A stretch of 64,000 nt of DNA from Squalus acanthias. Taxonomy: Eukaryota. This document shows, piece by piece, positions 1,771 to 41,184 of this stretch. Below the pieces are notes generated by a model. It saw only the letters and a program-made list of their open reading frames with translations. It made no database searches and had not been told where the DNA came from. The position numbers and the translations under genes are program-made. The first letter of the stretch is position 1, and each line of letters begins with the position of its first letter. The DNA lies in contig CM059450.1 in the NCBI GenBank assembly GCA_030390025.1, positions 14,508,001-14,572,000 on the forward strand, in the 5' to 3' direction.

Positions 1771-3170
1771 TCATGTTAGCGGTTCCTGCTTTATGACACA
1801 CTTCTGCAAGATGATCCCAGTACTTTGTCCGGAAACCTTGTTGGAATTTAAAGTCACTATGTTCCCTCTGGAAGATGAAGTTCCTGGTTGCGGTTCATGT
1901 ACTACAGAGCTCGGAGCTGTGTAAATGTAGTTGAATCCTGCATTGTCTAACATGTCGGACCAGGCCCGGTACTGAAATTCAGCAGCTCCCCAGTAGTTTC
2001 TAATACTGGATTCTGAACGGTGGCCAGTAAGTGCCATGATCTCCCGTGCTCCGAGGCCGGCGTCGCACAGGAGACGAACAGTTGTAGTTCTGAGGGAATG
2101 GTTGGTGTACCTCTGGGAGAGTCTGGCAGCAATACTGATTCTAGGCATCATGCTTCCGAGATAATTTACTCCCATTGGCTCCCGCTTATACCAGACAGAT
2201 TGTTCTCGTAACTGCTCTGGCGTCAATTTTAGAGGGTGAAGGTAGAAAGCAGGAGGGTCTGGTGGCAGCTTGGATATATAAAGTTCAAGGGAGGTGACTG
2301 GGCAGTTTACATCTCCTGGCATATCGTACATCCGACCCAGTTTCAATGGGTCCTCACGGCTTCTACTTTTCCCAGTATATTTCAGCATTGCATAGCGTCG
2401 TCCATTGGGATCTCGCTTAATAACAAAAGCGTCCGGAGGGAGGTCCCGAAGGATTTCCCGTCCACGCTTGGCAAAGTGCAACTGCAGGTCAAACCAGACT
2501 TTGTTCACAAGTGCAAGGGGTGTGTGAAGTCCCAGGACACCAGAGGTTCTGATCTTTCGGAGGTCGGCCGCATTAATCGGGGGGTGGTGGTTTGTTTCAT
2601 CCTTCCCTTGCTTTCTTAGTATCTTAAGCACACCCAAAAACACATTATTGGCACTGCTGAATTCCTTATCCTGCATCAGGCAGATCTGCCGGCTGTGAGG
2701 AGGCATCTTAAGGTGCCTGTTTAAACCAGCCCGGATGGATTTGTAACTGGAAATGCTATAGGTGTTACCGTCATGATTCCTCACCGTGCCATAAAATTCT
2801 CTCAAAATACTATTAAGTTCTTCCACTGACATAGTTTCAAATTTTTCATCTCTGCCCTTTTCAATCAGCCACTGTTTTAGGATATTCACTGCCCAGTCTG
2901 TCTGCTTGCGAGTGTTCTTCTCGTTGCGCTCTTCCTCAAGCCCAATTAGATCCTCCTCGGTCACAGTAACGTGCCGCCTGGCTCCGTCTAAAAGCTCGTC
3001 GCTGGCAATTTGCTCCTCTGTCATTTGGTCCTCAAAACTTAGCAGTGTGTTGCCATCGAAAATGCCATAGGTGTAGAGTGGGGAGTGAGACGCTGTTTTT
3101 TCGGACAGCTGTGAATTGCGGAGTAATACGTAATGTTTTGATATAATGCTTAAAAATTTTTTTTTTAAAA
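1771..3170 (-). CDS. Module B: Crypton-type tyrosine recombinase (KCTD1-DUF3504-like lineage) with catalytic residues retained; putative alternative terminal exon of ATF7IP (internal ATG at 3024 gives the 417-aa ORF)
   Basis: Motifs NTRKQTDWAV, LREFYGTVR..DG..YS, SIRAGLNRHL..PP, TPLALVNKVWF, KRGRE, RMY..PG...CPV, WYKREPMGVNYLG, YTNHSLRTT, TGHRSESSIRNY. The frame is open upstream of the ATG to a phase-1 acceptor ggattattttgtttAG|TT at 3170, matching the phase-1 donor at 9609. Confidence 0.88.
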
Positions 3171-4486
3171 CTAAACAAAATAATCCAGCAGGTGGCGTTC
3201 GTTATTAAGGTTTCCGCAGAGGTGTGCCAATATTCAATAGCGCACACCCTATTAACCAATCACTTTCACACATTACAAACCATGGCATTACATGTTGTCA
3301 CACAATAAATAGCAGAAAGACACAAGTTTGCTTTCAGTTTGAAAAAAAATGTAACGCTAAATCTCTCTTGTAGCTACCAGACCTTTCAACTATTGAGACA
3401 TTTGACATAGCAAAAAACCAAAATAGATAAAAGACACATCAATTTCATGTATGTATTCTCTAGAAGAACTGGAAAAACTTTAGTGCTGAAGAGAATCTGT
3501 AATAGAAATCGGAAAAGGCTTACAAGCTATGGAAAACGAACCTTGACCGACTGAACAACTTCCGTTTCTGCGCTGTGACGCGCTGGAGCGACGAGCTACC
3601 TGGATGCAGAATTTAAGCCGTTGAAAGTGTGTGGCATGGCAGCTGTGTGTGTGTGTGTGCATCCCGTCAGGACACTCCACTCAGTTGAAGGTTTCTGAAA
3701 ACTTTTGACGGCAACTCTTTTTGAGGACTGGATGCAGCCACATTCAAGTTGTGCTAATGAGTGCTGTTTTATTTACAGAATCTTTCCAGTTTATTTAGAG
3801 AATGCACAAAAAAGTTAGCAATTTCCTCCCCCCACCCCCTCTCTCCCCACCCAAGTGTATTTTTGTTTGTTTTAAACCCAAGCCCTCCTCAGGGATGCTT
3901 TGCACCATTCTCTTCTTTCTGGTGAGGGTAAAGATGTAGATACACAACATAATACAGACGCTACAGTTCCCCCCCCCCCCCCCCCCCCCCTTATTACATC
4001 TCTTTGGGTATTTGTGGAAGGTCTCACAGCACTTATCGTCTCAAATTCTATACTGAGGCATTCTTTAATTTTAATACAAAAGAAGTCCCCGAAACACAAT
4101 TAAACTTTGTGGCTTTAACTCTTTCTGGCAAGGTGCTCTGTAGATTTTGGAAAAAAGGCAGATTTGCTAATGAAAGGGTTAATTATATTATAATCCACTT
4201 TCAGTGGAAACGTTAACTTTAAGCAGAACAATATTACCCCTTACTTAGAGAGCTTTACTGGGCAAGGGTAACAAGGTGATCCATGACTGACTAACTTATG
4301 AGAAAGGAACAAGGTGAAGACCAGGTTGATCATTCTCCTGTACAAACAGCAACCACGTTCTACCCAAAGGGATAACTGTATTATTTCACCAACTGCACCT
4401 GGTCGGTAGAGACAAAGAGAGAGACTACAGTGGACTATCCCGGTGGTATGACGTGCAGTGATATACGTGCTGTACCCACCTGGTTG

Positions 4487-4500
4487 CCACTAGGTGGTGC
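4487..4500 (+). promoter_or_regulatory. CTCF-like motif
   Basis: ccactaggtggtgc is close to the CTCF core CCASYAGRKGGCRS; motif match only. Confidence 0.3.
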
Positions 4501-5452
4501 TTTCTTAGTGGCCGCTGACTCTCCTGGAACTGAGATAGGATGTCTCTGGGTGGCCTGGCTGAAGCTGTTCTCTGTTAATGGAATAGAAGCAATTCATTTA
4601 ACATTTCAGTTTGATGCGAGGAAAACAATTTAAAAAAAAAGTTGAGCTCCAAAGCTTCCTTTCAGCGGATCTTTGGTCCCAATGTCCACTTATTTCAATC
4701 TCTGGATTGAAGCTACCCCACACACTGCTGCAAGTTTAATCTTTCCACCAGCTGCAATAACGACCTAAGTTTTAGAATGAGTCCCGAGCACCTGGGGTTT
4801 CGTACAACCCCAACACAAGATTAGCAGGTGTGCATCAGAAGTCAGTAACACATCTAGAGATTGACATATTATTAACCATGAGCTTTAAACTAGCACAGCT
4901 GTCACTGTCATTGCATTCTCAAGTTCCCATCTGGGCTGACACTGCAACCTGCAGACAGATCAATCTAAATTTCAAAAGCTTCCTAAGTCGCTGCAGAGTT
5001 TCTATTTTGATCTATATCTACACGCAGAAGGCGTTATTAAATATAGAATTTATTTGAGGAAGAGAGAAGTAAAATGATGAAAACATAAATACACGGAGTA
5101 GATTCTGTTAAAACAACAGGCGCAGTAACAGGAGGTGGCTGTATTTTATGAAGTGTTATTTTAGTCTGGGCTACTGTAAAATGCAGAAGCAGTTTTAATA
5201 TCCCCATGTCATTATGCTAAGCAGCTTTCAACATTTACCTCAAGATTTTATCTTTTTTGAAAACTATCTTTGGATATTAAAAGCAGAGACTATAGTCAGT
5301 TACAGCATCTCCTGTAGTGCTCCCAAAGCTGGAGGATGCATTGTTTTGTAAGGTTGGAGTTTACCACACATAGTGCACAGTATTATTATGCTGCTGAAGT
5401 GTAGGAATGTGTCGCTTTAAGGCTACGAGGTATAATTGTTCTGCATTCTTAG

Positions 5453-6553
5453 ACTCTCAGTGAGATCATCCAAAAACACAATGTCAGAATCCACATGTAC
5501 ACGGACAACACCAGGCTCTACTTCACCACCACTGCTCTGGACAACTTCACTGCCTCGGATTTGTCACACTGCTTGTCTGACATCCAGTAGTGGATGAGCA
5601 GAAATGTCTTCCAATTATATACCGGGAAGACCAAACACATCGTCTTCGGTCCCTGTCGCAATCTCCGTGCTCTAGCCACTGGCTCCATCCCCCTCCCTGG
5701 CTGAGGTTGAAACAGACTGTTCGCAGCCTCAGTGTCCTATTTGACCCCGAGCTGAGCTTCCAATTAAATATTGGGAAGGTCAAAGCCATTGCCTTCAGTC
5801 CCCATGACAAACTCCGTTCCTTAGCCACCGACTCCATCCCACTCCCTGGCTACTGTCCGAGGCTGAAACAGACTGTTCGCGACCTTGGCGTCCTATTTGA
5901 AGCTGAGCTTCCGACCCCATATCCACGTCATCACCAAGACCGCCTACCTCCACTTCCACAACATCGCGAATCTCCGTTCCTGCCCATCTGCTGCTGAAAC
6001 CCTCATCCATGCATTTGTTACCTCCAGACTCAACTATTCCAATGTTCTCCTGGCTGGCATCTCACCTACCACCCTCCGTAAACTTGAGCTCATGCAAGAC
6101 TAGGCTGTCCGTATCCTAAACTCACGCCAAATCCCACTCACTGACCTACACTGGCTCCTGGTCTGGCAAAAATTCTCATCCTTGCTTTCAAATCCCTCAA
6201 TGGCTTTGCCCCTCCCTATTCTCTCTAACCTCCTCCAGCCTACAACCCTCCTAGATCGCTGCGCTCCTCCAATTCTGGCCTCTTGTGTATCCCCTGATTT
6301 TAATCGCTCCACCATTGGTGGCCGTGCCTTCAGCTTCCTAGGCCCTAAGCTCTGGAATTTCCTCCCTAAATCTCACCGCCTCTCTCTCACCTCCTCTAAG
6401 ACGTTCCTTAAAACCTACATCTTTCACTAAGTTTTGGGCCACCTGTCCCAATATCTCTGTGCGGCTTGCTGTCAAAATTTGTCTTCTAGCGCTCCTATGA
6501 AGCACCTCGGGATGTATTACTACGTTAAAGACGCTATATAAATGCAAGTTGTT
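5453..6553 (+). mobile_element. L2-clade LINE 3' fragment with an internal ~150-bp duplication
   Basis: Degenerate RT C-terminus (HMYTDNTRLY ~ YADDTQLY; AETLIHAFVTSRLNYSNVLLAG; GGRAFSFLGPKLWN); tail gacgctatataaatgcaagttgtt; 5611-5760 repeats at 5761-5910. Confidence 0.85.
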
Positions 6554-7756
6554 TCAAGAAAAATTTGCATATGAGCCAAGTGGCTGCAAGAAATTTACCT
6601 ATAAATACATGCGACAGGATGAGAGGAAATGGACACATGTACCATGTTGATACACTAGTAGATTTCCTGTGTCATTGCTCGCTGTACACCGCATATGATA
6701 TGTTTTATGATGACATGAATGCTCTACTGTATAATGCACAATGTATTATTCTGCTGCTACGGTGGAGCTGTGTTTAAGCTAACTTGTCCCTTTAAGGCCA
6801 GAGAGTCCAAGTAAAGAGAGCCTGACGTCACTCAGACTTTAATTACTATAATCAAATTTTGCAAATTGCAGCCAAGAAGCAACCAGCCTGCTGTACCATT
6901 CTGAATATATTGCAGCACATCTCCCATGGTATTGGTCAGAGTAAGTGGGATAATACACTGTTTTACAAGGATGTGAATTTTATATCATGTAATGTGTAAC
7001 ATATTATTCTGGTAAGGCGGTGTCCCTTAAAGGTAACAGAACCCCAATTGTTAAGAAATCGCAAGCTCAGGTTACTCAGCTCAACAGTTTGGTCAGAGAA
7101 CTTTGTAAATGTTAAAGTGCTGCCCAGGTTCAGCTTCACATCAGAAACACCCAGAATTAATAACTGCCTTTTTTTGCCTGTTTTTGGGAAAGATTCTTTT
7201 CACCTGCAACAAAGTGACATATAATAACTTGGTCACGCAAGCTGGTTCAAATTTCTCAAGTGTCAGCACGGAACAATAAATCGTCTTTCTCTCTCTCTCT
7301 CACCTGTTGACCTGGTGGTTTCCAGTATTCCCTGTTTTTGTTTGATTTCTAATACCTATTGTATCCCCGCTTTATTGGCACTCCTACTATTACACCTTTA
7401 TGCTACTGACAATCAAAGTACATTTCAGTGCACAGCAGGAGGTTGGTATGCCTGAACCGAAGGGTTAATGTAAGCCAAGTTAACTGCTAGTTACAGAGGT
7501 GCTCTCACGACATCCTTTCTTTCCTGAACTGCCAATTTTATCAAGGTGCTAATGAGTCACAAAAGTAGAAGTTTAGGCTAGCACTATGGCAATTTTAAGG
7601 AAGAAAACAGAATTTATCCAACTCACGTTTGGGGGGGGCGGGGGGCACTTTTTAAAGTTGGAATTTCCAATTTGAGAGTTTACTTGTTAGAATTCCAGTA
7701 TCTCAGTCCTCTACCACATACAGAAAGACAATAAACTGCTCCTGTGACTTTATACA

Positions 7757-8632
7757 TCATAGAATCATACAGCACAGAAGAACACTATTTGGCCCATCAT
7801 GCCTGTGCCGGTTCTTTGAAAGAGCTCTCCAATTAGTCCCGCTCCCCCGCATAGCCCTAAACATTTCTCCTTTTCAAGTATATATCCAAATCCCATTTGA
7901 ATGTTACTTTTGAATCAGCTTTAACAACCTTTTCAGGCAATGCATTCCAGATCATCATAACTCGCTGTGAAAATTTTCTTCTCATTTCCCCCCTGGATTT
8001 TTTTGCCAATTACCTTAAATCTATGACCTCTGGTTACTGACCCCTTCTGCCACTGGAAATAGAGTAAAGAAAGAAAGACTTGCATTTATATAGCACCTTT
8101 CACGACCACTGGATGTCTCAAAGTGCTTTACAGCCAATGAAGTACTTTTGAAGTGGAGTCACTGTTGTAATGTGGGAAACGCGGCAGCCAATTTGCGCAC
8201 AGCAAGCTCCCACAAACAGCAACGTGATAATGACCAGATAATCTGTTTTTGTGATGTTGGTTGAGGGATAAATCTTGGCCAGGACACCGGGGATAACTCC
8301 CCTGCTCTTCTTCGAAAAAGTGCCATGGGATCTTTTACATCCACCTGAGAGAGCAGACGGGGCCTCAGGTTTAACGTCTCATCTGAAAGACGGCACCTCC
8401 GACAGTGCGGCACTCCCTCAGTACTGCACTGGGAGTGTCAGCCTAGCTTTATTTGCTCAAGTCTCTGTAATGGGACTTGAACCTACAACCTTCTGACTCA
8501 GAGGCGAGTGTGCTACCCACTGAGCCACAGCTGAGTAAATAGAGAAACTATCAAAACCCTTCATAATTTTGAGCACCTCTGTTAAATCTCCCCTCAACCT
8601 TCTCTGCTCTGAGGAGAGCAACCCCAGCTTCT
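7757..8632 (-). mobile_element. CR1-clade LINE 3' fragment interrupted by a SINE
   Basis: catagaatcatacagcacagaag tail in antisense; sequence homologous to 1-190 continues on both sides of the SINE. Confidence 0.7.
8066..8533 (-). mobile_element. tRNA-derived Deu-domain SINE (SacSINE1/AmnSINE-like), full length
   Basis: A box TGGCTCAGTGG and B box GGTTCAAGTCC at the 5' end; Deu-like core (gatgtaaaagatcccatggcact...gaagaagagcagggga); L2-type tail with (ttct)n; possible TSD gagtaaa at 8062 and 8533. Confidence 0.85.
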
Positions 8633-9608
8633 CACATCAGGGAGATCCCATTTTCCTGCTCATTCCTCATATCCTTTAATATTTTTCCTGAATTCCCTCC
8701 TAATAATCATGATTGACTGGGCCTCAGTAGCCACTTGTGGTAAGGTATTCCATATTCTAATTACCCATTCTACTTACACAGCATGTGGTAATGAAGCTGG
8801 TAGATACATGGATAAACATTTCCTCCTGAATCCCATCCCACCAAACTGGGAATTTAGTGTGATGGGTGTTTACTGCTCAGTTACTACTACCATAAAAGCT
8901 GTCAGCGTGACGTTGAGACACTTATTTTTTTTTTAAAAAGACAGCAAATTAACTCCCATTTTCCCTATAGAAACCCACTGGGAAGCAACCGTACGAGTCT
9001 CACCTACTCATTGCCCAGTCCACAAGACTCGCTTGTTTGAACCATGGATGGATTTCTGTTACATTAAACAATGAAGTGTCTTTTTTTTAAAAAAAAGACA
9101 AAATGCTTCTTTTTTTTGTCTCCGATTGAATTGTTAATCATATTCCCTCACCCCAAACTTTGCAATGTGCTATTATTCTAAAATGCAATGGAATAAATGT
9201 AGTGCTAGAGCTAGCAGCATTCAGATTCGAAACAAAAGCACTTTCATTTCCCCCCTTTTCTTTCTAGTAACAGTTTCATAAACTGGGATTTAGGTTTATT
9301 GCAGCCCCGTTAATACTTTTAATTGAGACTTACTTGTACTTTAGTAGATTTGTGTTTACGTTTTTCCCAAGTGAGACGAGGCCCTCAATGTTTCAATAAG
9401 CCTCTGCGTAAAACTCCTTCTCATAACTCAAATCCCATGCCCCACAACTAGCATTCACAGATTTACTGATGGCAAAAGGCAGGCAACACAACATAAACAT
9501 ACTAAATATCTTTGCTACATAATATGTAAGCAATTACATTACCAAACATTGCTGAACAAAGAACACTTCAGTTTGAACGCGCACGGTTGCATGTGATTCT
9601 TCACTTAC

Positions 9609-10289
9609 CTGCTCTGGAGGTTCCTGCATTGGTGCTGTCTGAACTGGCTGTTAATGGCTGAGCTGACGATCCGGAGACTTGCCCCTGGCTGTAAGTCTGT
9701 GAAGGCCTTGGCTGTATTGCCGGCCTAGTATTAGGAGGGCTAAAATGTCCTGGGGCAATCAAAGATTGCTGTGCTGTCCGGGAAATCTGGGGTGAAAGAA
9801 TAGGCTGAGTACTGGTCACAGAAGCAGTCTGACTGGAAACAGCACTGCTTATCTGCATTGACCCCATACTTGCAGGGGACTTCCTTTGGACTCCTGGGCT
9901 TGGCAAGGAAGGACTAGCACCATTTGCTTTTGCTACATTCGCCGATAGCTGCGATGCAAGTGGCTTGGAGAGGTTGTTAAGCGTGGGTTGGGATTGAACA
10001 GGTAAAAACTCAATTCCAGGTTGCTGGCTGGTCATCAAGGTGTTTGCCGAGGCTTGCAGGAGCTGAGGTTGGGAAGACATTGCCACTGGAACTGTAAGCA
10101 ATACTGGCACTGACTGGAGAGATACTGGCATAGGCTGGCTACTGCCGGAGGCTGGCAGCGACTGATTGGTTCCGACCACGGCTGCAGTTGCTGGGAGCAC
10201 AGGAGTGACCACAGCACCAGACGACCCTGTGTTCTGAGGTTTGGTCTGTCCGCCAACTACCTGAGGAGGTGTGAAGTTTGTAACAATAC
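9609..10289 (-). CDS. ATF7IP: ATF7IP Ser/Pro/Thr/Gln-rich exon
   Basis: SLQSVPVLLTVPVAMSSQPQLLQ, IEFLPVQS and PSLPSPGVQR match ATF7IP SLQPLPVILHVPVAVSSQPQLLQ / VEFISVQS / PSVPSPSIQR. Acceptor gttttactgttgcAG, donor GCAG|GTAAGT; 681 nt, phase 1/1. Confidence 0.92.
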
Positions 10290-10976
10290 CTGCAACAGTA
10301 AAACATCCTTTGATTAGAAACTGTAAATAGAAATATTTTATTTTTTTGCACTCCTCCCCAACTTCTCATTTGGGGTCCTAATCATGTTCACATAATGGCC
10401 AACAACCAAGTGGGTTGGGCAAGTCTGGTGTGCAGATTACACTGCGACCGCCTTCAATACGACTGATGTTAAGGGGATGCAATACAACAGGGTCAACTGA
10501 GCTCTGTGGTACAATCCTTTGGTTCACCAATGTGCTACACGATAGGGCAGTAGGATGTAGATTTAATGATGTGCCGACATACTGAGGCTCCACTAGGCGC
10601 CAGTAGGTACTGATGCTTGCCCAGGGGGTGTGAAGAGAGCGAGGCAAGCCATTTCACTATTCCACACCTACTAGTGACGATAACACAGCAGCACTGGCAA
10701 AGCTCATTGAACTAAAGTGAAGACGACATTTTAAAAATATGTTTATATCTTTGATGGATATGTACTGGCAATTTGCCAGATTACTTTTTGATAAACTTGC
10801 AGCAACAACATCCTACTCTTGTCTGGATGCCATCCTACATCAACATGGAATGCATAGGCTGTTAATGCGAGTAGAACAAAAATTAATTTGCAAGTTCATA
10901 CAATCCTCAATTAAACAAATTTAAAAATGGCAGCTTAGGGTTTTACAGTAATATTCTGTAGCTTCCAGTTCTTCCA

Positions 10977-11400: not shown

Positions 11401-11826
11401 TCTCTTCCCCTCCCAGGGTAGTACACTTACCAACACTCGACCCAGCTGCCCGAATGGAAGTGACAAAACTAAGTTAAGCTAGTTGGATTGCAACTAAGTT
11501 AAGCTAGTTGCAAAGCAAACAGCTCGAGGACTTGAACTACTGGTTCAAAGACAAGGGAAATGAAGGGGCTGAAATTCCTCTTCTGAGAAACAGCAGAATT
11601 CCCATTTTTCTTTAATTAATCGCTAATAGAATTATATTCTCATAAATCGAATATTTCAAAGCCACATGTTCCTGTGGTGTAATTAGCAGGTATGGGGGAG
11701 GGGGCAGCAGGAGAGAAATCACAGGCACTTTCTGCATTTTTATTAAAAGAGGATCTGATGCTGTTAATATAGTTAAAAAGTACTATGGAACTTCATTATA
11801 AATTGCAATACATTTTTTGTAAGTAC

Positions 11827-11915
11827 CTGTATTACTGGAGTTTGCAGAGTGCTGGGCTGATGCTACACTGTCTGCCATATTTCTTCGTAAGTCCAGCATC
11901 TGCCTTACTGTTCCA
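11827..11915 (-). CDS. ATF7IP: ATF7IP exon (SGTVRQMLDLRRNMADSVASAQHSANSSNT)
   Basis: Matches ATF7IP AGTVRQMLESKRN. Acceptor ttttgtgtttttcAG, donor CAG|GTACTT; 89 nt, phase 2 to 1. Confidence 0.9.
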
Positions 11916-13927: not shown

Positions 13928-13967
13928 TACATTTTTGAGGAACACTTTAACAAAGGTACGCAATATT

Positions 13968-16735: not shown

Positions 16736-16851
16736 CTGCGACACTGCACACTACCAGAAGCACCAAGAGGGGGGTTGCAGGATTTGCTGGGAGAGACAGG
16801 TTGCGTAGACTGGAGTCCAGATGGTTGCTGAGATATCGAGATGGAAATACT
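16736..16851 (-). CDS. ATF7IP: ATF7IP exon (SISISISQQPSGLQSTQPVSPSKSCNPPLGASGSVQCR)
   Basis: PVSPSK resembles ATF7IP PVSPGK. Acceptor ttttttgttttgtccAG, donor CAG|GTAAGG; 116 nt, phase 0 to 2, compatible with both neighbours. Confidence 0.8.
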
Positions 16852-25818: not shown

Positions 25819-25824
25819 TTTATT
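25819..25824 (-). terminator. Candidate polyadenylation signal AATAAA for module A isoform
   Basis: Plus-strand tttatt at 25819-25824, about 43 nt downstream of the stop codon. Confidence 0.45.
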
Positions 25825-25866: not shown

Positions 25867-26235
25867 CTACTGGAAGATTTTAGCAGCACAATAGGATGAT
25901 GATGCTGCAACTTTGACAGAAGACATTGGTAATGTTGAAGGTGTACTACAAGGCAGTTCAACCTTCACCAATCCTTCCTGGTTCGTAAGCACTGCTTCTG
26001 GCTGGGTGACTATGTTCACTGCTTCTTGTGCACAAGCACTTTGCTGTCTCAAGGAAGAAGATGACTGTGAACAAGCTGGGATCTTCTTCAAAGGATTTGG
26101 AGGCTGCAAACAGTCAGACACTGCCTTCATTTGAGTCTTTTTGTAGGACATCATTGCATTACTGCCATTTCCCATTCGTTCCTTAATTAGCTCTTCATCA
26201 AAGCCACGACTGTGAAGGGCAGCTACACTGCTGAC
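25867..26235 (-). CDS. Module A exon 2 (terminal): C-terminal end of the YR domain plus low-complexity tail
   Basis: Acceptor ttttgttgtAG|GTC at 26235 (phase 0) gives VSSVAALHSRGFDEELIKERMGNGSNAMMSYKKTQMKAVSDCLQPP, the expected continuation after HTGQSGR (Crypton pattern HSLR.T....L...G.DEQLI.ERTGHRS.A...YK). TAG at 25867-25869. Confidence 0.82.
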   Translation of the reverse strand, partial: VSSVAALHSRGFDEELIKERMGNGSNAMMSYKKTQMKAVSDCLQPPNPLKKIPACSQSSSSLRQQSACAQEAVNIVTQPEAVLTNQEGLVKVELPCSTPSTLPMSSVKVAASSSYCAAKIFQ

Positions 26236-29200
26236 CTACAACAAAATGAATACACACAAAAAAGAAAAATAAGCCTGTGTAGATGAACAAGTCACTGGGG
26301 TTGTGCAGACAGGCTGGATTTCGGATATTGGTCGTTAAGATTTTTTCATTTGATGACCACTGAGGCATTGTTGATTTAAACTGCGTCAGAATGGATTTCC
26401 TTCTTACAATTTGGGCTTTTGAAATTGGGGTGAATTCAATTAAGACTTGGAAGGTTACTGCAGAGTAGCGGCACTTTTGGTTTGGTAGAATGAATGCAAT
26501 GCCCCACTGGTCTGCCATACCACAAACTGGGAGAGCCACCTAGGAAATCCAAACCTTTAATGCATCCCCCAATACAACAAAGGGTTTACAAAAACAATAG
26601 TAGCAACAGGATTACCCAAAATTTGCAAGTAAGGATCCACACCCCACCAGAGAAATAAACATTTTGCCAAAATATCTCAAGTAGTGAATTCCTGTTAATA
26701 TCATGTTGACTTGAGTAAACTAAAAGGGGACACAAATGCAACAGTGTGAAGTGACAGTAACAGGATTTCACCTATACAATAGATTTCCCTCAGAGATACA
26801 TCCAACACATCCTAAATTCTCTGAACAGCGAGTCAGATCACTTTCGCAATGACTCATCATTGCAGTTTCGTGGAGCATAAACTGTCATCTAGCACTGACA
26901 AAAAAAAACCCAAGTTTGTGAAAACTAAGTACAAAGTGAATGTGCCACATAGATTAAAAAAGTGACTAAAAAAAAAAATGGACACAAGGGATGTAAAAAC
27001 TGGGATTAAAAGTGACTAAATAGAATTTAATTTAGGGGCAAGGGAAACAGCATGAAGGCTTTATTGTGGGTAACCCAAGGGCACAGATATATTCACCATT
27101 TAATTCAAAATTTTATAAAAACAACAAGGCCCAAAAAGTATGCCGTGGCATCACTTCCATTCCGAATTTTTGGGGTTTGCCCATTCAAATTCTATAATAA
27201 CAGTGTTGCATCTAAGTTAATAACATCATATTCTACTCTCGTGTGTTTAGTAGCAGTAAGGTCCTTGAATCTGGTCAAAATAAATTGAGAGTTTGATCCA
27301 GTCTGTTTTCAATTACATTGTCTTGCTGCAACATTACAATCTGCACGCCAGTCCAGCAAGTCCAATTGTTTACAGGCCCAATGAAGCCAGAACTAATGGA
27401 TTTCAACTACAGTGCAAGACAATTTTGTCCTTGCAACTCCAATTTGACTATTGAGCTTTTTTTTCTTAAACACGAATCCATTTGGAATTTGACAATCACA
27501 TCAGTGCTCCCAGAAAGCCTAAACAACTCAGTGAAAGCCACACAATGCAGTCAAAAATCACCATCATAGAAAGGGAAAACAAAATATTAAAACACTGCAG
27601 AATTTACCAATAGTTGACAAAAAAATCTCTTCAGTAACTTGAATACTAAAGGGCCATCAACAAGAGTCCCCTTCTCCTGCCCCATCCCAAAAAAAGGAAA
27701 AACATCTTTCCGAGAAATAGTTGCATGCTTGGTTACACTGATTAAATCTTCCCAAGTCAATTGGCGCTGGTCAAATATAAATGCAAAGTTATGAGCTGGG
27801 GCTTGGGATTGAAAGAGTTTGAATTCTCTCAGTGGACAACTTTATTTTATTCAATAAAAATGGTCGGTACAATTCTATTCAGAGAAAAGTCAACCATTTC
27901 TGTTGTTGAATGTTTCGGTCCAAGGTGAATTAAATTCTGTTTTGTAACAAACACACAAAAGACCAGCCTCCTCTATAATGCCATTTCTGTGGGTTGGACA
28001 ATAATGCGGAGATATACACATGCTAAAAAAAAGTGTGCCTGTGGGCTTATGGGCATGCTACAATTGGTGTTGCTTGCTGGTAGCCAAGTGGGAAACTTCT
28101 GGTAGAATTTCAGTTTTGCTAATTACGATCTTAGCCACCTGGACAATGTTGCTGTCCACTGATTATAACAACAGCTTAGCAACCGATTGGTCAATCCTGC
28201 TCATCCAATCTGGTTCATTATGCTAGTTAAAAAAAAAGAGCCAGATAGTAATAGCGATAGCCGCTCGGAAAATAGTTCAGTCGGGTGCAGTGTCTGTGTG
28301 GTCATTTCCTATCAGAAAGTTTCACAGTTGGGGTGCGGAAGCAAGAGGATGAAGGAAGTTACATTGATGGTTGTTTACATCATTACTGACTGGCGATAAA
28401 CAGTATAAAAAGGGCTGGGGTCTGTCACAGTATTATAGCGAGGGCTTATTGTATACATAGTTATGATGGGCAATTTATCAGAGACAGAGAGCTGCAAGTA
28501 CAGCACCCGGCATTTTTTTTTTATTCAGTTGCACTAGCCGGGAGAATGTGGTGCAGCCCACTTCAGATCAGCTTTGTTGAGATCAAATACTAAGATCAAA
28601 GTTCGCTGCCACTTTAGTATATAACTTTAACATGACTACAGATGCATTATTTTAACATTGTTAAACCCTGGGGGAAAATCCTTTGGCAATTTGGATGATG
28701 ATCTCAAGGCTCCACTGTATTAACATCAATAAACCACTAGTACCAAGTATTAAAGATGTTTTTTTGAAGGTCAAATGACAAAGTTTCCCTCAATTTCTGA
28801 TTCGAACGCTAATGGTCATTGTAAACGAAAATACAAATCCATAAAGTGGAAGTTAAATCGCTCGAGTTTCAAAAAAAATATAAACAATTGAAGTGTTGGT
28901 GTGCTTTGAATTTTATTCTGTATGGATAAACATTTAGGTCTGGAAATATTAAACTATGAAAATAAGGGGATCAGCCACAGTTTAACGTGCAAGAGCACTC
29001 AGTTAGTGATGGCATGTACCCTGTACCGTCAGATTAAATAAACTGCTTTCACCTACAAACGCTTAGTATCTGCAGCCACACTATACTGCCTGAGAGACCG
29101 AACAATGTTGAAATATTAATGTTCTCAGGCTTTGCACAAGCCTTCCCGCTTCAGCGCTAGAGGCCTTCTGTGAGCTATGGTAACAGTGAAGGATCTGCTC

Positions 29201-31378: not shown

Positions 31379-33646
31379 CCTTCCAGATTGGCCAGTGTGG
31401 CGTCCTGAAATGTCACCCGCCTCACAGATTTCTTTGGAGTACCGCTCCAGAGTGTGAACTCCTATAGCCTGCTGGCAGAACTCCAGCCGTCCGGGAAGTG
31501 GGCGCCGGTAAAACGGACCGTCGCTGGGAACCATGCTGAGGTAGCGACGGAAGACAGAAACAATACATCGCGGGTTGGACAAGTCTGCATACTGCCGAGT
31601 GTGTCCTTTAGTCCTCTGGATTCCATCTCGGTATGGCTTTGCCACAAACTCCAAATATTCCCCAATTTCATCAGCTCCAAAGGTAAACTGATCGACCATC
31701 AATTTATTGTGCTCGGCTGCTGCGTGTACACCAAAGACTTTGCAGAGGTAGAAATAGACAGCGTAACTGTAACTTTTTGCATCTCGAAGTTGAAAAACTA
31801 TTTGCCACAGTTTTTCTTCTTCTTCTTCGGTGTAAGGCTGTGCTTGTTTCCTTACAGTACCAATCCCCTGTTGTTTAAGTTGTTTCATCTGCCTGTCAAG
31901 GACAGTCCGAAACTCAGTATACTCCACGTTATATTTGTTAAAGAAATCAATGTCCAGTCGCTTGCAGGTTTCACGCAAGTATCGCAAGATGGAGCAGCAC
32001 AGGAGACGGAGAGAATTAGGTGGGTAAAATGATCCATCTTGCCGACGGACTTCCTCCACAAAGTGGCACAACCAGAAATTCAGTTCATCATGACTTATTT
32101 CATGAGACAGTATTGGCACATAAAGGAACGACTCATCGCATTTCATACTATTTTCCATGAGGTAGTTATTCCGGTTTTTAGCCCACTCATCCCAAGCTCG
32201 AACGCCCCAGGCTGTGGCTCTCTTTGTATTGTAGGGAATTACGCTATCTTGTATAATCACCCGTTTTCTGTTGTCCGGAACAGGCTCACAAATGTCTTTG
32301 GGGGCCCGTTTAACTGGCAGTGAAACCCGCTGCTCCACAGCAGGTCCATCAAACCCATTATAGGGAGTTCTACTCTCTTGTAACACTGTTTGTTGATTCT
32401 CTGCAGTTGTCACTCCAAACGCATTGCACGGAGTCTTATTCTCTCGAAATATTACACATGGCGTACCTGCATCAGGCTCACCAAGGACAATAGAGGGAGT
32501 CTTACTCGCATGTAGTGTTACATGTTGCTGTTCTGTACCAGGCTTTCCAGAGGTACTATTGGGGCCATTACCCTCTTGTAAAAGAACCTGCTTTTGCTTG
32601 ACAAGCGTACTATCATAAACCTGTGGCTTCTCTGTAGATAACTGGACAAACATACTCTTGGAAGTTCTACTGATTCTTAATGGAGCCTCATGCTCCTTCA
32701 CTATGGCGTCCCCAAATGAGTTACAGCGAGTTCGATTATCTATTAACGCAACCTGATGCTTATCTGTAGTGGATTTGTGATTAATACTTAGAGTTCTATT
32801 ATACTGTAATAGTGCCTGTTGTTTTAATGCAACAGCTTTGCCCAATTCAGCAGAAACCCTACAATCCTGCAGTGGAACTTCCTGCTTTAGCAAAGGCTTA
32901 CCGGATCTATTCTCTTGTAATGCAACTTGTTGATTGTGCAATGCACTTGTTGGGTCTGATGGAGACAGAGTTCCATTATGCTGCAGTGGAGCCTGTTGCT
33001 TTAATGCAACAGGGTTGCCTGATGATATTCGACAATCCTGCAATGGAACCTTATGCTTTAAAATAGGTCTATTATGTAATGCAATTTGCTGCTTCCCGAC
33101 AGCAGACTTATTATGCAGAGATCTATTGTGCTGCAATGCAATTTGTTGCTTTAATGTAACTGGCTTGTCTGGCGCAGCAGAAAATCGACAAGCACGTAAT
33201 ACAGCCTCTTGCTTCGCTGGAACGGCCTCAACACAATCATGGGCGGCCAGACTCTCATGCAGTGTAGCCTGTTTTTTTGTGATGGGGTTATCAAATGTAT
33301 TATAGACTATTTTACTGCCGTGTATCATAACTGGTTGCTTGTTTGCAACAGGTTTAGCAAGCGTGTCAGATGGAGCTCTACGGTTGTGTAATGAACTCTG
33401 TCGTTTCTTTGTAACAGGCTTGTGAAAAGTAATATAGACCATCCTATTATCTTGAAATAGAACCCCTCTTTTTTCCACAGCAGGTTGGCTGCATGTATTC
33501 CAAGAAATCCTACTATTCTGCAGTGGAACCTGTTCCGTTTGCACAGTGGACTTGCCAAACTGGTGTTTCTCATTTTTCTTTGCCAACTTGAACTTCTCTT
33601 TGTTGCTCAAATCAAATTGCATTTCTGGTTGAAAAGGTGCAGGAAT
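31379..33646 (-). CDS. Module A exon 1: ~22-aa repeat array plus N-terminal and core part of a Crypton-type YR/DUF3504 domain (KIAA1958/QRICH1/ZMYM-like); putative alternative exon of ATF7IP
   Basis: Part of the 808-aa ORF 31334..33760. Crypton-like motifs: IPYNTKRATAWGVRAWDEW, ELNFWLCHFVEEVRRQDGSFYPPNSL, EFRTVLDRQMKQL, EEEEKLW, RCIVSVFRRYLS, PFYRRP, IGVHTL. In-frame acceptor ttcttctgtttctttgtctcAG|ATT at 33646 (phase 0); donor AGG|GTAAGT after 31379 (phase 0). Confidence 0.85.
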
Positions 33647-35331
33647 CTGAGACAAAGAAACAGAAGAACCTGCCAGTAAAGCCAGTGAACCTTCTTCAAA
33701 ATTTAGGGCAAGACAAATATGATTAAATTGTGTTCCTTTTTTGAGTTTGAATTGATCCAATGAACAACTGACTGTTTTGGGTGGTGGCAGAAGGATACAG
33801 AGAACAAACCATCTAGTAATGGAGCAGAATTCATCACTACTTCAGCACACCACCTGTAGAGTCTGGGGCAATACAGCACCTGTTAAACAATATTGCAGCT
33901 AGCAGTTTGTTTCACTGAATGTACAGCGCCGCCCCTGTTGAAAAGCAGTTTCCACAATAAAATGAGGATTACAACGAAGCACTGAAACTTCAGAGCCCTG
34001 GTAATGAACCAAGGGCTGGCTCATTGTTCATTTTCAGGATCAAGGGGCATTAGTCATTTCCCACCACTCACATCTCTATCTACAAGGTAAATCCTAATCT
34101 GATTGCACTCCTGGTTAGAAAGAATGCCCGCCCAGGATTCTGATTCCCTGACAGCTGCAAACAAAGCTTTGATATCCGTGTCAGAAGCACAGGCCACGAA
34201 TAGTGCAGGCTTGCTACAGCCCCAGAGGGGAGTCTCAACCTCATAGAAACCCATGACATTTGTTACACCCTCCGATCATACAGTTGGGAATTAAATTCCA
34301 TATACTATGTGCTTCTGGCGTGTATACCTCTATTATTGTCCAAAGAGTGCCCATGAATCATAAAACAGGTACATCACAACTCGTAATATACATTATCCAA
34401 ATCACAAAATTTCTGTAATCGTCTCTTACTCACTTTAAATACCAGCTTTTTCAGAACAGTGTTTCATTGGATTTAAAAAAAGAACTTTGCTCACTTACTT
34501 GAGTTAAACGGACTTGTCTCATCCTGTTCAGTGATGCCATAGCAGTGTCACTAGATGTCAACGAATGAAGGCTGTCAAGTCATTGTGACATCAATAACTT
34601 ATCGATCACGGGAGGAAGAGGAAAACCAGGCTGCTTTTCCAGGGTCCTTACAGACTCGAGTTTAGTGCACCAGGAGTTTAACTGGGGCCTCAAGAGCACT
34701 CTAGGTTTGGCAGATCATCCAATCAAATGCTGTAACCCCCGTGTGCATAGTCCTGAAGCCGGAGATGCATTTCTCCGCAGGGCACTTGGAAATCGACTCA
34801 TTGGGTTTTTTCAATGTGTTCAACACTCACTGCAAAAACAATTCTGTACTCCTTGCAAATCTGTACAGCTAAGGCAGACTGCAACTGTATAACTACAGTA
34901 ATAAACGAGGAGGGACAATCCTGATAATAAAGGTGGTTCAACACACACAGAATTATTGCCCTGGAAATCCATCAGAGTTAAAAGTAATATGGTTCCAAAA
35001 TTCTGCTTATGACAGCAACTCCTAAAGTTTAAATGTTATCTTTAAGTATTTGGACTCCCCATGTCCACACTTCATGTGAACCCCATCTTCCATCTTGGGG
35101 AGTATATAGAGGAGCAAATACTTCATTTTGTTACGGAATATTTCACAAAGTCAAACTATTTTTAATTTTCATAAGTAAATCAAACTACGTTATAGCATAA
35201 TGCAGCTAAATTAAATTTCAACCTGAAAAATGTTTTTTTTTTTTTAAATGAGTATACTGAAGCCTGAAGAGGTTCACTGCGCTGTTGGAAAATTGAGGAG
35301 CTCTCCTAGCTCCCAAAATGCTGGCTGGACA

Positions 35332-35483
35332 GTGGGCGTGATTACTGAGCCCATACAGAATGGTGACTGGGCAGTGGGCGTGATTACTGAGCCCATACAG
35401 AATGGCGACTGGGCAGTGGGCGTGATTACTGAGCCCATACAGAATGGCGACTGGGCAATGGCTGTGAACCCTGAGCCCATACA
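35332..35483. repeat. 42-bp minisatellite, 3 full copies plus 1 partial
   Basis: Unit gtgggcgtgattactgagcccatacagaatggYgactgggca. Confidence 0.95.
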
Positions 35484-37897
35484 ACAGTCCTAATTTATGC
35501 CTCCACCAAGTGCAGATCCTTTAATGTAACACTTTTATCCTTCTGAGGTTTCCAAAAAAGTTCACAATTTTCTTCCCCTCTTGCATCGCTTTCCAATCTC
35601 ACTCACACACTAAAATTTCAGCACAATACAATTTTTCCAAATCCTCAGTCCCCCCCCCCCACCCCCAACACTCAACAAGAACTAATCAAGAGACCTGCTT
35701 TGGTTGGAAAATATAGCGCAACTGGCCTTCAGCGTACATCCGGCAGCTCACGGCTATTTTCACAAATCAACAGCAACAGCATGCCAACAAATACACCTAA
35801 TGGCTACTAAAAGCTCGATTCAGACAGTTCACTGGCAATTAGTAGAAAATAAACTAAGTAAACTATCGCGTGTCAAACAACAGTGAAGACACACGGGACC
35901 AAGTAGCAACATCCGACTAAAATTAAAGTTGTTTATAAAAAAAAAACCACGTAACCCTGGCTTGGGCCACGGTTCACGGCTGTGCCCGGTTGTGTTTCTG
36001 TTAGAGCCAGAACATACTCCAAATAGAAATGTGTCCGACAACATGTGTTTAATGGGAAAAAAAATTGTAGGGCAATACTTTCAATATAAAGTACTTCCTC
36101 TGCTCCCCCAATGATATGGAGGTTTCAAGGTTAAAAAGCACACTATTGAAGGGATTTCATCTTCTGGCAAACACCCACCACTTTGAGTCTCCACACTCAG
36201 CCGGAGAGCTGCTCAGCTGAAGTTGAACAGGATTGTCTGGAAGCACCTCTAATGGAAATCCTTTAAGTCTGTATTCACCCCCCCCCCCCCAACCCCCTTC
36301 CAAATGTCAATCAGGAAGCTTCTGAGCCAAGAAAATGCCAGCCAAGTACGCAGCAGTAATCAGCTGGTGCAGAGTTACAGAATACAATACCAGTAAACAA
36401 TATTTCAGCTCCAGCAAGGTAGGAGTGTATTTTTTTTTAATTAAAAAGCCTTTTTGCATTAACTAAATGCCGACTACGGAAATGGGGGTGAGGGGTGAAA
36501 GAGTATGCTTTTCTCTCCTTCCCCCACATTTTGTCTTTCAGCTGCTGAGCAGATTATTGTGCCTGTAATTAATGGGCACATAGAATAAATGATTGAGAAA
36601 CTTATCTTCATGCACCGTAGTAACTCGCAGGTGCCTATTGAAGGCACTATTGGGAGCAACGATGCCTCGAAAACTAACAGCACCACCAGCAGGAACCCAG
36701 TGTTACTGCACATTAGATTTCTCCCCCTCACCAGGCCAATGGATTGCTCGAATTCTGAAAAAGGGTGTAGGTCTCGACTGTTGTTGCAGCAATGCAAGTT
36801 ATCAAAATGTTTTACCCATCCTTATTCCTGGAGACCACTAAAGCTGCAAAACATTTACAAAATTAGTAAAAGGAATATAAATTTTCTGAACATAAAATAG
36901 AGGTTACAAAAGTTAAGAGGGCCTGTTGTAATTGTGTAAATATTGTGATGGGGGGGGGGGGGGGGGAATCAACAATGTCATACTTCGGTGGTAGTTGAAG
37001 ATTGTGTCATGAAGAACTCCCATAGCCATCAACATGCATCCAGCATGTCCCATGTAAGAGCAAGTAATTCACTCACACCTAGTACTATATCGCAGCAATT
37101 TCCGTGCCTATCACAGAATTTATAGTACAGAAACAGGTCATTCAGCCCATCAGTGTTTATGCTCCACACGAGCCCCCTCTTTACTTCATCTCCCCCTATC
37201 AGCATATCCTTCTATTCCTTTCTCCCTCGTACTTATCTAGCTTCCCCTTGCATGCATTGTTGCAGACGCTGCAAATTGAGCAAGTTGCTTGGCTGCCCTC
37301 GTAAAGGGGGCCAGTGTTCCGAGCGAACATGCTGTGCTGGTGATGAGGGAGTTGCTGTGAATGTCTCCAGCATCGCAGATGGGTACAGCAGTTTTTTGTA
37401 CATTTCCACAGCTCCCGACAATCAATCAATGTTCCAGCACAAAAACAGGCCAATTGACCATGAAATCTGCCCATCCACGCACACTCGCCCCCCGCCCACC
37501 AGTCTAATGCCAGCTCCCGCTTGCTTCTCAGCCTTTAACATTCCTCTTTTTCAAGCAACTCTTATCAATGAGCGTCTCCTAAACAGGTAGTCTTCAACTT
37601 CGGTGCAATGCTTTACTAGCTCCAACTTTCGTGCAATGAGCAGTGCATTTATCACGGAGAGGTATCAACCCCAAAACAGGATTGCTGAACTAGGCTTACG
37701 ACTTATCCCTCTCCATGGGCCCAGTCGTCAGCTGGATTCATTGCTACCTGCACGGACCTTACCCACACAACAGCAGCTGTGCATAAAAACATTTCGGCAC
37801 TGTTATGCAAATAGCTGCAATGGCATACTCCAGAAGGCTGAAAATAATTCTCTTGACGTTATGGAAGTCTGTGAAGGTTTTAATAATAATACTACAA

Positions 37898-38297
37898 TAG
37901 CAAAATACTGCAGATGCTGGAAATCTGAAATAACAACCGAAAATGCTGGAAACACTCAGCAGGCCAGGCAGCATCCGTGGAGAGAGAGAGAGAAACAGAG
38001 TTAACGTTTCAGGTCTGTGACCCTTCGTCAGAACTGGTAAAAGTTGGAGATGTAACAGGTTTTAAGCAGGTGCAGAGGCAGGGAAAGGGGGGGGGGAAGG
38101 AATTAAAGGCACAGTCTGTGCTAGGATTGAACTCAGGAGAGATTAAATGTTGCAAATGGGGATGGCAGAATCATCAACAGCTACCGCCTGAAAAAATGGG
38201 GGGGGGGGGGGGGGGGGGGGTTATAGTCTGAAATTGTCGAACTCAATGTTGAGTCCAGAAGGCTATAAAGTGCCTAATCGAAAGATGAGGTGCTGTA
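37898..38297 (-). mobile_element. Penelope-like shark interspersed repeat (second copy)
   Basis: Homologous to 13968-14350. Confidence 0.6.
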
Positions 38298-41103
38298 TAA
38301 TGTTTGACTTAGCACTAACCTTCTATAAGTTATATCCAGTCAATGAATAATCTTTCAATGAATGCATACTTTGACATTTATCATTGGCACAACCACTACT
38401 TATTCTCTACATTCTCTTATCTAGTTTGGACAGGAGAGGAGGTTTCAGTTTTATAAATCATCAAAATAAATATGGTCTGTTGTAGAAATAAAATATTTTG
38501 AATTCTTAAAAATGGTTCACTTCACATTCAGAATCTCTGTGCCGGTTCTGCAGCTGTTAAGAATTTGGACCCACCCCAATGCCTGCAGGATAACTAGTGC
38601 ACTAAAGTCCCCAAGTTGCAAAAAGGTTCCCTCAGCCAGAAGCTGAAAGCTCTGCAATAACGTAACAGATCAATATCGCTAGTGAAACCTTACAGCAATC
38701 CAACAAATACAAGATAGAAACCATTTAAAAACCACAAGCAAAACAACTTGTGCAACCGGCCCTTTCATCACATTCTCCCCTTTCTCCTCAGGTGAATGGA
38801 ACCTAAAAGGCAACATGTGGAACTGGGAGATATGAACTGAACAGCAAGCCTCAGCTTGGAGTGTAAAAACAGGAGGGGAACTCGTAAAACAGCCAACCGT
38901 TAAGTTATGTACATCACTGTCTTATAAAACGTATACGTATACATCAAACAATACTTCCTGGCGAAATAAGCAAATCACCATGGGCATCCACGCATGCTGA
39001 GAACAGTGAAGAGAAGCACCTTACAAGCTGCAATACAATTTCAGGATCCTGACAGACTTTACATAGTCACTGGAATCTCTCAGAACTATTAGTTTTACAA
39101 TGAACTCGCAGCCAACAGTGATTCACGCTATAAGGATGCCACCAGTCTACCATGGTACTGAAACACTAGTGGGAAAACTAGTTCCCTGCAGCAGCCTCAA
39201 AAGTATACCAGCGGGGGGGGGGGGGGGGGAGAAAGTCTGAAAAAATTCCACTGAATCTTTGCTTGTGCATCACTGCAAATTAACCGCTTCCAGATATTGA
39301 TCTTAAGAGATCCGATGGACATTAGCCAAATCAACATCTTTTATTGAGCTATTTTGTTTACATATACAATGTTCCATGTGCACCAGCACCAAATGGGAAA
39401 ATTAATTTATGGCTTTGTACATTTTCAGCATCGACAAAACCCCTTCCTCTCTTCTAACCATGGAAGAAAGAGGGCAGAGGGAGGAAGGCAAGTTTATAGC
39501 AATCTTGCATTAAACGGTGACACATATCAGTGGATGAAAAGACTATATAGAAATCTGAGTTTTGTCCAATTTTATTTCCTTGCATAGTTGGATAGTGCAA
39601 GTTTAAACTCTAGGTCAGGAGTAACATGCCCATGTGCTCGGAGAAAACCATGGCTTTGCTTTAGGCCTTTATTCCTCTCCCGGCCGAGAGCTGGAACATG
39701 TCTGCAGCTTCTTTTACTGGAACAATCACTTTGTTTTTGTTCAAATATAGATTACTGGGTCGGCTCAAGCAGCTCCTATGTGAAGGCATCAACTTACACC
39801 AACATTTCATTTTTTGACTCTTTTAATATACAGGATAAAATAACTGTACACAAAATGGGGCAACAGCTAGTAACAGTCTGAACTCAATTTATACAAAAGG
39901 AGGAGTGGTCAGCTGTAACAATCCTGTAATAACTTCACGTATATAATGACTCCCTTAAAATCAAAACGTCTCGAAAGCACAATGGATTACTGTTTGAAGT
40001 GCATGTTTACTTCCAGTATCCAGCTGAGGAGAGACTACATTGCTGCAAGCTGCCACGTCATCGGTGGTGCAAGCGTAACCATTTTAGATGTGGCAAGGTA
40101 TGCGGCAAATGATCACACCTGGGGACTCGGGAACAGCCCTCTGTGGAGCTGTGGTGCAGTTGAGGAGGTTGCACATCCACTGAGTGACTGCTCGTTCACG
40201 CTGGTCTACCAGGAGGACTTTCCAGACTCCGCAGTGTTGACCCCAAGGCTACTGAATGGCTAACGCATGCATGGGGGCTACTTTGGCCCTTGACATTATT
40301 GACTTATAGTTTATCTCCCTATTTTATAGTTTGTATTTTGAATTTTGCCCCCACTGTTTAGTGTAGCACTTGCGCATTCACAAATAAATAATATTTCTAC
40401 TATATTGGAATCTGCAAAGACCCACTAGGTTTCTAAAAAAGGTAAAAATGGGCTTTAAAAAGAGTTTATAAAGTTACATCTCCGAAGCAAAACTTCCAAT
40501 TGAAAATTGCTGTCTTTTCCATTTTTGTTATTTCCAAGCCATGTTGTTGTGCCTTACTTTCATTCCTGTCTCCTGCTCTATAATTTACAGTACCCAGAAA
40601 TATTTAACATTCCTCAGAAAGTACATGCATGCCAAATCGCAGCGAGAGAACCCACAAGGTATATTTTGAGCTGCAGTGAGGGTTATTCTTGTACTGGGAG
40701 TGTTTGAGTTCCTGCCAAGGATTGAAACTACTGAGATAGTATCTGTACGAGTGAGAGTAAAGCAGGTAATTTGAGTTAATTTGTAAGCATACAGAGAAGA
40801 TGATTACAAGACGAGAAGTTTATATTTGAGTTGACAGAGTATGGATGCATACAAGTGTAGATGCTTGAAGCAACACTGTTTGAATCGTATAGATTTGCAG
40901 GATCTAACTTCGATATCCTAATACCTTTAAAGAAATGGATAAAATAATAGAGGTGAGGGGTAATTTCTGGAGATTTAAAGTTCACCCTCACTGCATCCAG
41001 AAGGGTACTGAGCCACTACTGGTATACTACAGGGTCACGATGATAAGGCCCAAGCACATTATATTTCCTAAGCAATTAAGCAATAGTCCCATTTGGTACC
41101 TAC

Positions 41104-41184
41104 CTCTTGTGCTTTCTTCAAGGCAGAATCATTGCGAGCTTGATTTGCTGATCCTAGCCTCTTCTCTATCTGCATTAGTTTTGC
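41104..41184 (-). CDS. ATF7IP: ATF7IP exon (AKLMQIEKRLGSANQARNDSALKKAQE), end of coiled coil
   Basis: Continues ...LQ|AK like ATF7IP AKIARLTKRF. Acceptor ttttctgcAG, donor GAG|GTAGGT; 81 nt, phase 0/0. Confidence 0.85.

Follow-up and report, generated by a model that had tools for sequence, protein, structure and literature searches.

Candidate alternative ends with a tyrosine recombinase fold in the SETDB1 cofactor gene ATF7IP of Squalus acanthias

The gene for the SETDB1 cofactor ATF7IP in the shark Squalus acanthias carries two long intronic coding modules of Crypton ancestry, here called module A and module B, on the minus strand of a 64,000-nucleotide stretch referred to as the window (contig CM059450.1; G000:C27:14508001-14572000 of a 3.71-Gb genome). 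We put at about 55% the probability that the gene has three mutually exclusive ends, FN3, module B and module A, and that the two tails with a recombinase fold would tether SETDB1 to chromatin. The original prediction, made from the window, proposed two alternative ends of Crypton origin, each of which would retain the SETDB1-binding coiled coil but lack FN3. This architecture is supported by database fusion models, by selection and by a spliced joint within module A; however, module B is a published locus, and module A, rather than a transposon insertion, appears to be the duplicate of an already domesticated gene. The question addressed is how SETDB1 finds its targets in vertebrates without KRAB zinc fingers, and an exon switch that swaps the recruitment hub of ATF7IP for a recombinase-fold module, with A in sharks and B also in birds, turtles and frogs, would be a testable answer.

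Two coding modules in the ATF7IP gene

The minus-strand gene is the shark ATF7IP, with exons 78-97% identical to shark ATF7IP models, and it combines the ATF7IP_BD domain (PF16788) with a C-terminal FN3 domain (PF16794). The former was profiled in the close orthologues P0138 and P0001, whose exons map onto the window, and the FN3 exon is open at G000:C27:14478777-14479079, about 29 kb past the start of the window. Five shared exons up to position 41104 provide 507 codons. The two long stop-free minus-strand frames of the original prediction were recovered at 835 codons (33841-31337) and 476 codons (3201-1774), as opposed to 129-244 codons for the longest stop-free run in 30 shuffles of the window, and AATAAA motifs lie downstream of both modules at 25824 and 1593. 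The accompanying argument, that these frames are intact while the surrounding long interspersed nuclear elements (LINEs) are broken, is correct about the frames but carries little weight, since one of the downstream introns holds a LINE-like frame that is 650 codons long (L017 34-1983, minus strand); the real evidence for the modules is conservation rather than frame intactness.

In Pfam, module B matched DUF3504 (PF12012; E 2e-12, 47.9 bits against a cut-off of 29.7) as well as Phage_integrase. Module A matched the QRICH1 domain (PF25561; E 6e-17, 62 bits against a cut-off of 30.8), and its DUF3504 score lies close to the cut-off of 29.7, with 28.2 bits (E 2e-6), 26.9 bits in P0138 and 31.3 bits in another scan. 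The predicted module A model, with the junctions 41104>33646 and 31379>26235, has GT-AG splice sites and encodes 1385 amino acids with no internal stop.

For module B, the chondrichthyan models join donor 4480 to acceptor 3108 in phase 0, which gives 1278 amino acids in this shark; the donor belongs to a 92-nucleotide exon (4571-4480), located between 9609 and module B, that the original prediction had overlooked. The originally predicted junction 9609>3170 is in frame (1268 amino acids), yet the three chondrichthyan models do not use it and it is probably wrong. All three chondrichthyan B-fusion clusters (Heterodontus, Chiloscyllium, Narcine) read PSGNQ/LSEK or PSGNQ/PSEK, the slash marking the junction, and the turtle and frog models show the equivalent Q/LSEQK. 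Module B and FN3 are mutually exclusive, since B precedes the exons leading to FN3. ATF7IP_BD is joined to module B in 107 of the 120 clusters listed (123 found), at 63-97% identity. Birds make up most of these, the others being the three chondrichthyan clusters, turtles and the frog Ascaphus; mammals are absent from the clusters listed. Identity of module B is 89-97% within chondrichthyans and about 67% to birds.

According to Kojima and Jurka (2011; PMC3212892), an intact tyrosine recombinase (YR) lies in an ATF7IP intron of zebra finch, with a similar intact frame in chimaera, whereas the copies of chicken and turkey are frameshifted and mammals retain remnants; translation within ATF7IP is suggested. 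Frith (2022; PMC9004415) dates this Crypton to the gnathostome ancestor, and the chimaera translation in Fig. S5 of that paper matches module B by eye almost residue for residue. Module B is this published ATF7IP Crypton and the orthologue of the locus in zebra finch, alligator and chimaera. The original prediction knew of no described ATF7IP-Crypton fusion, but both module B and the idea of the fusion are already in print.

The catalytic residues R, HxxR, H and Y are complete in the window and in 98 of the 107 B-fusion clusters (94 by pattern, four by eye). The other clusters comprise seven truncated ones (six galliform, one hoatzin), one with Y>C in Columba and one partial sequence, and the galliform truncation agrees with the published frameshift. 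This retention makes module B unusual among domesticated Cryptons; all six human DUF3504 genes have lost the catalytic tyrosine (Kojima and Jurka, 2011). Module B could still be an active tyrosine recombinase or nicking enzyme that the host employs, either at sites of its own or at cognate transposon sites, while SETDB1 would mark the target; the catalytic set kept from sharks to birds is in line with this. However, the region of the H and Y is lost in galliforms, the tyrosine is replaced in Columba and no target site is known; the residues may also persist for phosphate binding, because the whole domain is highly conserved. We therefore hold this activity to be quite unlikely.

Origin and selection of module A

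Among the matches found, the only close relative of module A in the genome is a two-exon gene with its own ATG at G000:C3:112480870-112486746, here called the C3 gene, which stands alone and encodes 508 amino acids. Protein identity between the two is 69% and DNA identity 70%, and their intron lies at the identical codon boundary. The C3 gene belongs to a cluster of 20 shark and ray members (90% identity; 15 listed), all named uncharacterized or hypothetical, and a coelacanth protein (LOC102346282) is 48-49% identical. A careful tree built from 23 selected rows places A and C3 as sisters (support 100/98), with the coelacanth protein next (100/99), within invertebrate Crypton-like proteins; the trees were built without ZMYM or QRICH1 domains. 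In pairwise terms, the close relatives of module A are likewise invertebrate Crypton-like proteins (32-45%), with QRICH1 at 24%. Modules A and B are about 25% identical, and a single clade of both was rejected by the approximately unbiased (AU) test (p-AU 3e-95). By these measures module A is a Crypton lineage distinct from module B, neither the same element nor a tandem copy of it.

DNA similarity to the early codons of the C3 gene (33658-33551) spans the acceptor of module A, a site that reads CCA in the parent and CAG in A, and the parental ATG is lost at the aligned place. Because this similarity crosses the acceptor and the intron is shared, module A probably arose as a DNA-level duplicate of the standalone C3 gene, followed by a new acceptor inside the old coding start and by growth of about 420 amino acids of repeats. 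For the sequence preceding the coding remnant, homology between A and C3 was rejected: the alignment, suggestive at first sight, had a score that 52 and 55 of 300 shuffles reached. Homology in the 3' untranslated region and the intron was likewise rejected (171 and 107 of 300). An origin of A from the two-round genome duplication is disfavoured. The paralogue of ATF7IP sits on C18, where DUF3504 has no match, and the C3 gene has a BMPR2 ectodomain exon 15 kb away on the other strand, which also counts against this origin. The C3 gene is possibly nested in BMPR2.

Module A is present in sharks and a skate and therefore predates their split, roughly 250-300 million years ago. A chimaera or bony-fish copy was not found, which is weak evidence. 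Module A appears to be a separate capture specific to sharks and rays, and a second independent capture at ATF7IP suggests selection for the pairing over chance. A literature search, which reached few subscription papers, found no published account of module A or the C3 gene, and both are apparently undescribed, while module B is already known. The C3 parent adds another gene to the domesticated Cryptons; its conservation among sharks and rays is high, and it is so far named only "uncharacterized".

The N-terminal part of module A consists of about 450 amino acids of fast-evolving degenerate repeats, which vary in length and are 48-85% identical among orthologues. The core is 84-98% identical across six orthologues, near the 92-98% of the coiled coil. 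In all seven database sequences of module A the catalytic set is altered (R>H, H>Q, H>N), whereas 35 non-vertebrate or unnamed rows of the same alignment (A5) retain R and H, and module A is predicted to be catalytically dead. The Nei-Gojobori ratio of non-synonymous to synonymous substitution rates (dN/dS) between A and its C3 parent is 0.10 over 405 codons, an imprecise value because dS is near saturation. Against sequencing run X9, the differences listed comprise 16 synonymous and two replacement codons in 31379-31613 (263 further rows), and three synonymous and seven replacement codons, all in the tail, in exon 2. The core of module A is under purifying selection.

In genome searches, in which copy numbers are lower bounds, neither module showed the multiple near-identical, dispersed copies by which the original prediction would have recognised an active transposon, and both are single-copy. 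The idea that the modules are recent or active transposons, or functionless annotation artefacts, could draw on the intact YR frame in B and on the long open frames in nearby LINEs. It is refuted by copy number and conservation, with single copies at an orthologous position across taxa, purifying selection and a splice between the exons of module A seen in three studies, and we regard it as exceedingly improbable.

Transcript evidence and the fusion of module A

Models that fuse module A to ATF7IP exist for Heptranchias (1387 amino acids), Heterodontus, Mustelus, Scyliorhinus (XP_038639810.1) and Rhinoraja. Four of the five have the junction equivalent to 41104>33646, while Rhinoraja joins further in, and in Heterodontus the A and B fusions both lie on one contig. 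Transcripts were represented by assembled contigs from four runs of four studies (four of 24 listed), which are not recorded as RNA and are presumed to be so from their spliced joints. The predicted joint 31379>26235 between the two exons of module A, CT..AC on the plus strand, was observed in three of the four runs (X2, X9 and X13). Further contigs end exactly at 41104 (X9, X13), at 33646 (X13) and at 26236 (X9, X13), and the ends at 41104 and 33646 are what branching would cause. In X9 and X13 the contig of exon 2 begins at its acceptor, and its depth figure is roughly threefold that of exon 1, although depth in contigs is a poor measure. Direct splicing of 41104 to 26235 would keep the frame and give an isoform of 629 amino acids; the X9 and X13 contigs break at 26236.

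Several points weigh against three alternative ends that tether SETDB1. Both fusion junctions, that of module B included, are known from database models only, and these are automatic predictions, among which there are also two standalone models of A (P0121 and P0122, in Pristiophorus and Scyliorhinus torazame). The joint 41104>33646 is absent among the 15 of 49 joints listed, and in X1, X2 and X9 the contigs continue past 33646 for 150-370 nucleotides of upstream sequence, to 33793, 33868 and 34016, so that a standalone form of A is likely too. Module B is dispensable, since it is truncated in the six galliform clusters and the hoatzin and degraded in mammals (Kojima and Jurka, 2011). Finally, we infer the binding of DNA or chromatin by modules A and B, as well as SETDB1 binding by the shark fusions and silencing.

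These observations would fit a module A that is mainly a nested standalone gene, transcribed from a promoter in the ATF7IP intron (first in-frame ATG at 33622), with the fusion as a minor by-product and selection acting on the standalone protein. The standalone state of the C3 parent, the unbroken contigs of three runs and the two standalone models all agree with it. However, fusion models occur in five species, four of which share one junction, an X13 contig starts exactly at 33646, the acceptor CAG stands in place of the parental CCA with the parental ATG not retained at the aligned site, and the read-through may be unspliced pre-mRNA. On balance we find a mainly standalone module A somewhat unlikely, although less so than the other alternatives discussed.

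The features of the window are collected in Table 1. The 90-nucleotide partial copy of module B (882-971) covers its HSLR region and lies 800 nucleotides past the B stop, within an open frame of 171 codons (1125-613). A 42-nucleotide tandem repeat of 3.8 copies is located at 35325-35483, 1.7 kb upstream of module A. A reverse-transcriptase fragment at 53388-54823 (plus strand) is broken over three frames; both it and the frame L017 34-1983 (minus strand) resemble LINE sequences. Rfam and tRNA searches gave no matches.

Table 1. Exons, modules and other features in the window, in order of transcription (all on the minus strand).
Feature	Position	Strand	Basis
ATF7IP first large coding exon, ATG at 59362	58258..59362	-	tblastn 91% to Heterodontus ATF7IP model; GT donor
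ATF7IP exon, 51 nt	51082..51132	-	exon mapping to ATF7IP models
ATF7IP exon, start of SETDB1-binding (ATF7IP_BD) region	46867..47012	-	mapping to ATF7IP models
ATF7IP coiled-coil exon	43409..43546	-	mapping; joint to next exon in 3/4 runs
ATF7IP exon closing coiled coil; phase-0 donor 41104 is the branch point (module A or canonical exon 16851)	41104..41184	-	507 codons to here; X9 and X13 contigs end at 41104
Parent-gene N-terminal coding remnant, contains module A acceptor 33646	33551..33658	-	blastn 69% over 108 nt to G000:C3:112480924-112481031, E 2e-6
Exon 1 of module A, 2268 nt: degenerate repeats followed by the larger part of the predicted dead tyrosine-recombinase/QRICH1-type core	31379..33646	-	Pfam; X13 contig starts at 33646
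Module A exon 2, 369 nt including stop: recombinase core end and variable tail	25867..26235	-	spliced joint in X2, X9, X13; intron position as in C3 parent
AATAAA after module A	25819..25824	-	motif; contigs run on to 25650, edge of aligned stretch
Canonical ATF7IP exon, alternative to module A	16736..16851	-	mapping to ATF7IP models
ATF7IP exon	11827..11915	-	mapping to ATF7IP models
ATF7IP Ser/Pro/Thr-rich exon, phase-1 donor 9609	9609..10289	-	mapping; splice sites
ATF7IP 92-nt exon; phase-0 donor 4480 is the branch point (module B or exons leading to FN3)	4480..4571	-	81% to P0001 residues 808-839; AG/GT sites
Terminal exon of module B (1338 nt), a Crypton tyrosine recombinase that retains R, HxxR, H and Y	1771..3108	-	Pfam, models
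AATAAA after module B	1588..1593	-	motif
90-nt copy of module B 2076-2165, 97% identical (local partial duplication)	882..971	-	sequence comparison

Fold, proposed mechanism and comparison with known systems

The predicted model of module B (predicted local distance difference test, pLDDT, 63) matches Cre with E 2.7e-5; a sequence search of B against the PDB gave nothing useful. The fold of module A was read through P0125, from its 69%-identical C3 paralogue family, standing in for A (pLDDT 79.5), which aligns with Cre at Z 16.9 and a root-mean-square deviation (rmsd) of 4.2 over 284 residues. A Cre-like fold is thus predicted for B and for the paralogue family of A. Foldseek ranked the QRICH1 chain of PDB 9hjt first for both models, and module A passes the Pfam cut-off for QRICH1. 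Instead of binding DNA, the modules might be protein adaptors, like the DUF3504 domain of QRICH1 in Zincore (as given in the title of PDB 9hjt and a citation in PMC13538652), a complex that sits on zinc-finger proteins; they would then link SETDB1 to zinc-finger factors in animals that lack a KRAB-TRIM28 system. However, Cre is geometrically the better fit for P0125 (QRICH1 chain: Z 13.5, rmsd 16.7, 263 aligned), and the close relatives of module A are the invertebrate Crypton-like proteins and not QRICH1, which leaves a pure adaptor role unlikely.

The simplest reading remains a SETDB1 tether. Module B would trace back to a Crypton that inserted in the ancestor of jawed vertebrates; later, before the split of sharks and rays, a copy of a standalone domesticated Crypton gene would have entered the intron that follows the coiled coil, and a splice acceptor would have formed within the former coding start of this copy. 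The minimal SETDB1-binding fragment is Atf7IP 574-666, which forms a 1:2 trimer, and mixed trimers form as well (Kariapper et al., 2025; PMC12167477); mapped from C631 of that paper, its equivalent would end before the A junction. FN3 binds ZMYM2, ZMYM4 and MGA (Tsusaka et al., 2020; PMC7706265). Because the binding fragment precedes the A junction and FN3 is the hub, both fusions would keep the grip on SETDB1 and lose the FN3 hub that recruits, for example, the DUF3504 proteins ZMYM2 and ZMYM4, in exchange for a domain of the ZMYM2 family. The recombinase-fold module would most likely serve as a built-in chromatin tether, either DNA clamp or adaptor, and exon choice would shift where SETDB1 is brought. 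As SETDB1 engages two copies of ATF7IP, a fusion chain could be partnered by an FN3 chain or by another fusion chain. The whole genome contains one weak KRAB match.

A more far-reaching proposal, which we consider improbable, is that ATF7IP is a recurrent capture platform, an equivalent of KRAB older than KRAB, whose coiled coil was repeatedly spliced to transposon modules that direct H3K9me3 to specific DNA. The captures would be B in gnathostomes, A in elasmobranchs and possibly a Crypton in saury and a pogo-type helix-turn-helix (HTH) in Narcine, and if true, module B would be a still-active host tyrosine recombinase.

Related arrangements were observed at other loci. In Narcine, the ATF7IP isoform X8 (P0166; one species, one model) has the B donor spliced to pogo/Tigger-type CENP-B_N and HTH_Tnp_Tc5 domains, and no such pogo-type exon was found in 114 kb around the shark ATF7IP. 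In Cololabis saira (P0110, P0155), a degenerate Crypton YR replaces FN3 and is joined downstream of the VIDLT exon, in an intron different from that of B. It groups with teleost Cryptons, and the trees favour an independent capture (93/94), although the AU test does not reject a grouping with B (p 0.23); it is possibly a third capture. N-terminal pogo-type HTH domains in Catharus ATF7IP isoform X3 (P0040) and an N-terminal Crypton YR in Misgurnus ZMYM4 (P0113) may each be annotation artefacts. A pair of DUF3504 frames without introns, both on one strand and separated by 21 kb (G000:C1:124873192-124873923, L008; 124894407-124895294, L005), seem to resemble the two exons of KIAA1958. KIAA1958 isoform b is reported as missing in Chondrichthyes in the relevant passage of Kojima and Jurka (2011).

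The nearest known system is the ATF7IP intronic Crypton itself, which is module B, and for which the intact frame, catalytic residues, predicted alternative splicing and gnathostome age have all been stated (Kojima and Jurka, 2011; Frith, 2022). The relevant sections of these papers differ from our account in that they treat one Crypton, give no fusion transcript and do not mention a second module. KCTD1 isoform b and KIAA1958 are the closest precedents for alternative DUF3504 exons, and KIAA1958 in particular has two divergent Crypton-derived alternative exons in one gene, which are 26% identical and so about as divergent as A and B. In contrast to both, the host part in the shark is a SETDB1 cofactor and the tails replace a known recruitment domain, module A has an intron and apparently arose by gene duplication, and module B retains its catalytic set. 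The KRAB-transposase fusions (Cosby et al., bioRxiv 10.1101/2020.05.07.082677), whose main text as available mentions neither ATF7IP nor Crypton, are similar in that a transposon domain on its own exon is alternatively spliced to a repressive host domain; here, however, the domain is a tyrosine recombinase instead of a DDE transposase, and the partner is a direct SETDB1 cofactor instead of KRAB-TRIM28. ZMYM2/3/4 and QRICH1 share the fold and, like module A as predicted, are catalytically dead. Module A, by contrast, has none of the MYM zinc fingers and appears to fall in a different Crypton branch, together with the C3 gene, the coelacanth LOC102346282 and the invertebrate Crypton-like proteins. 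As ZMYM2 and ZMYM4 bind the FN3 domain of ATF7IP, the fusion would place in cis a pairing that otherwise occurs in trans.

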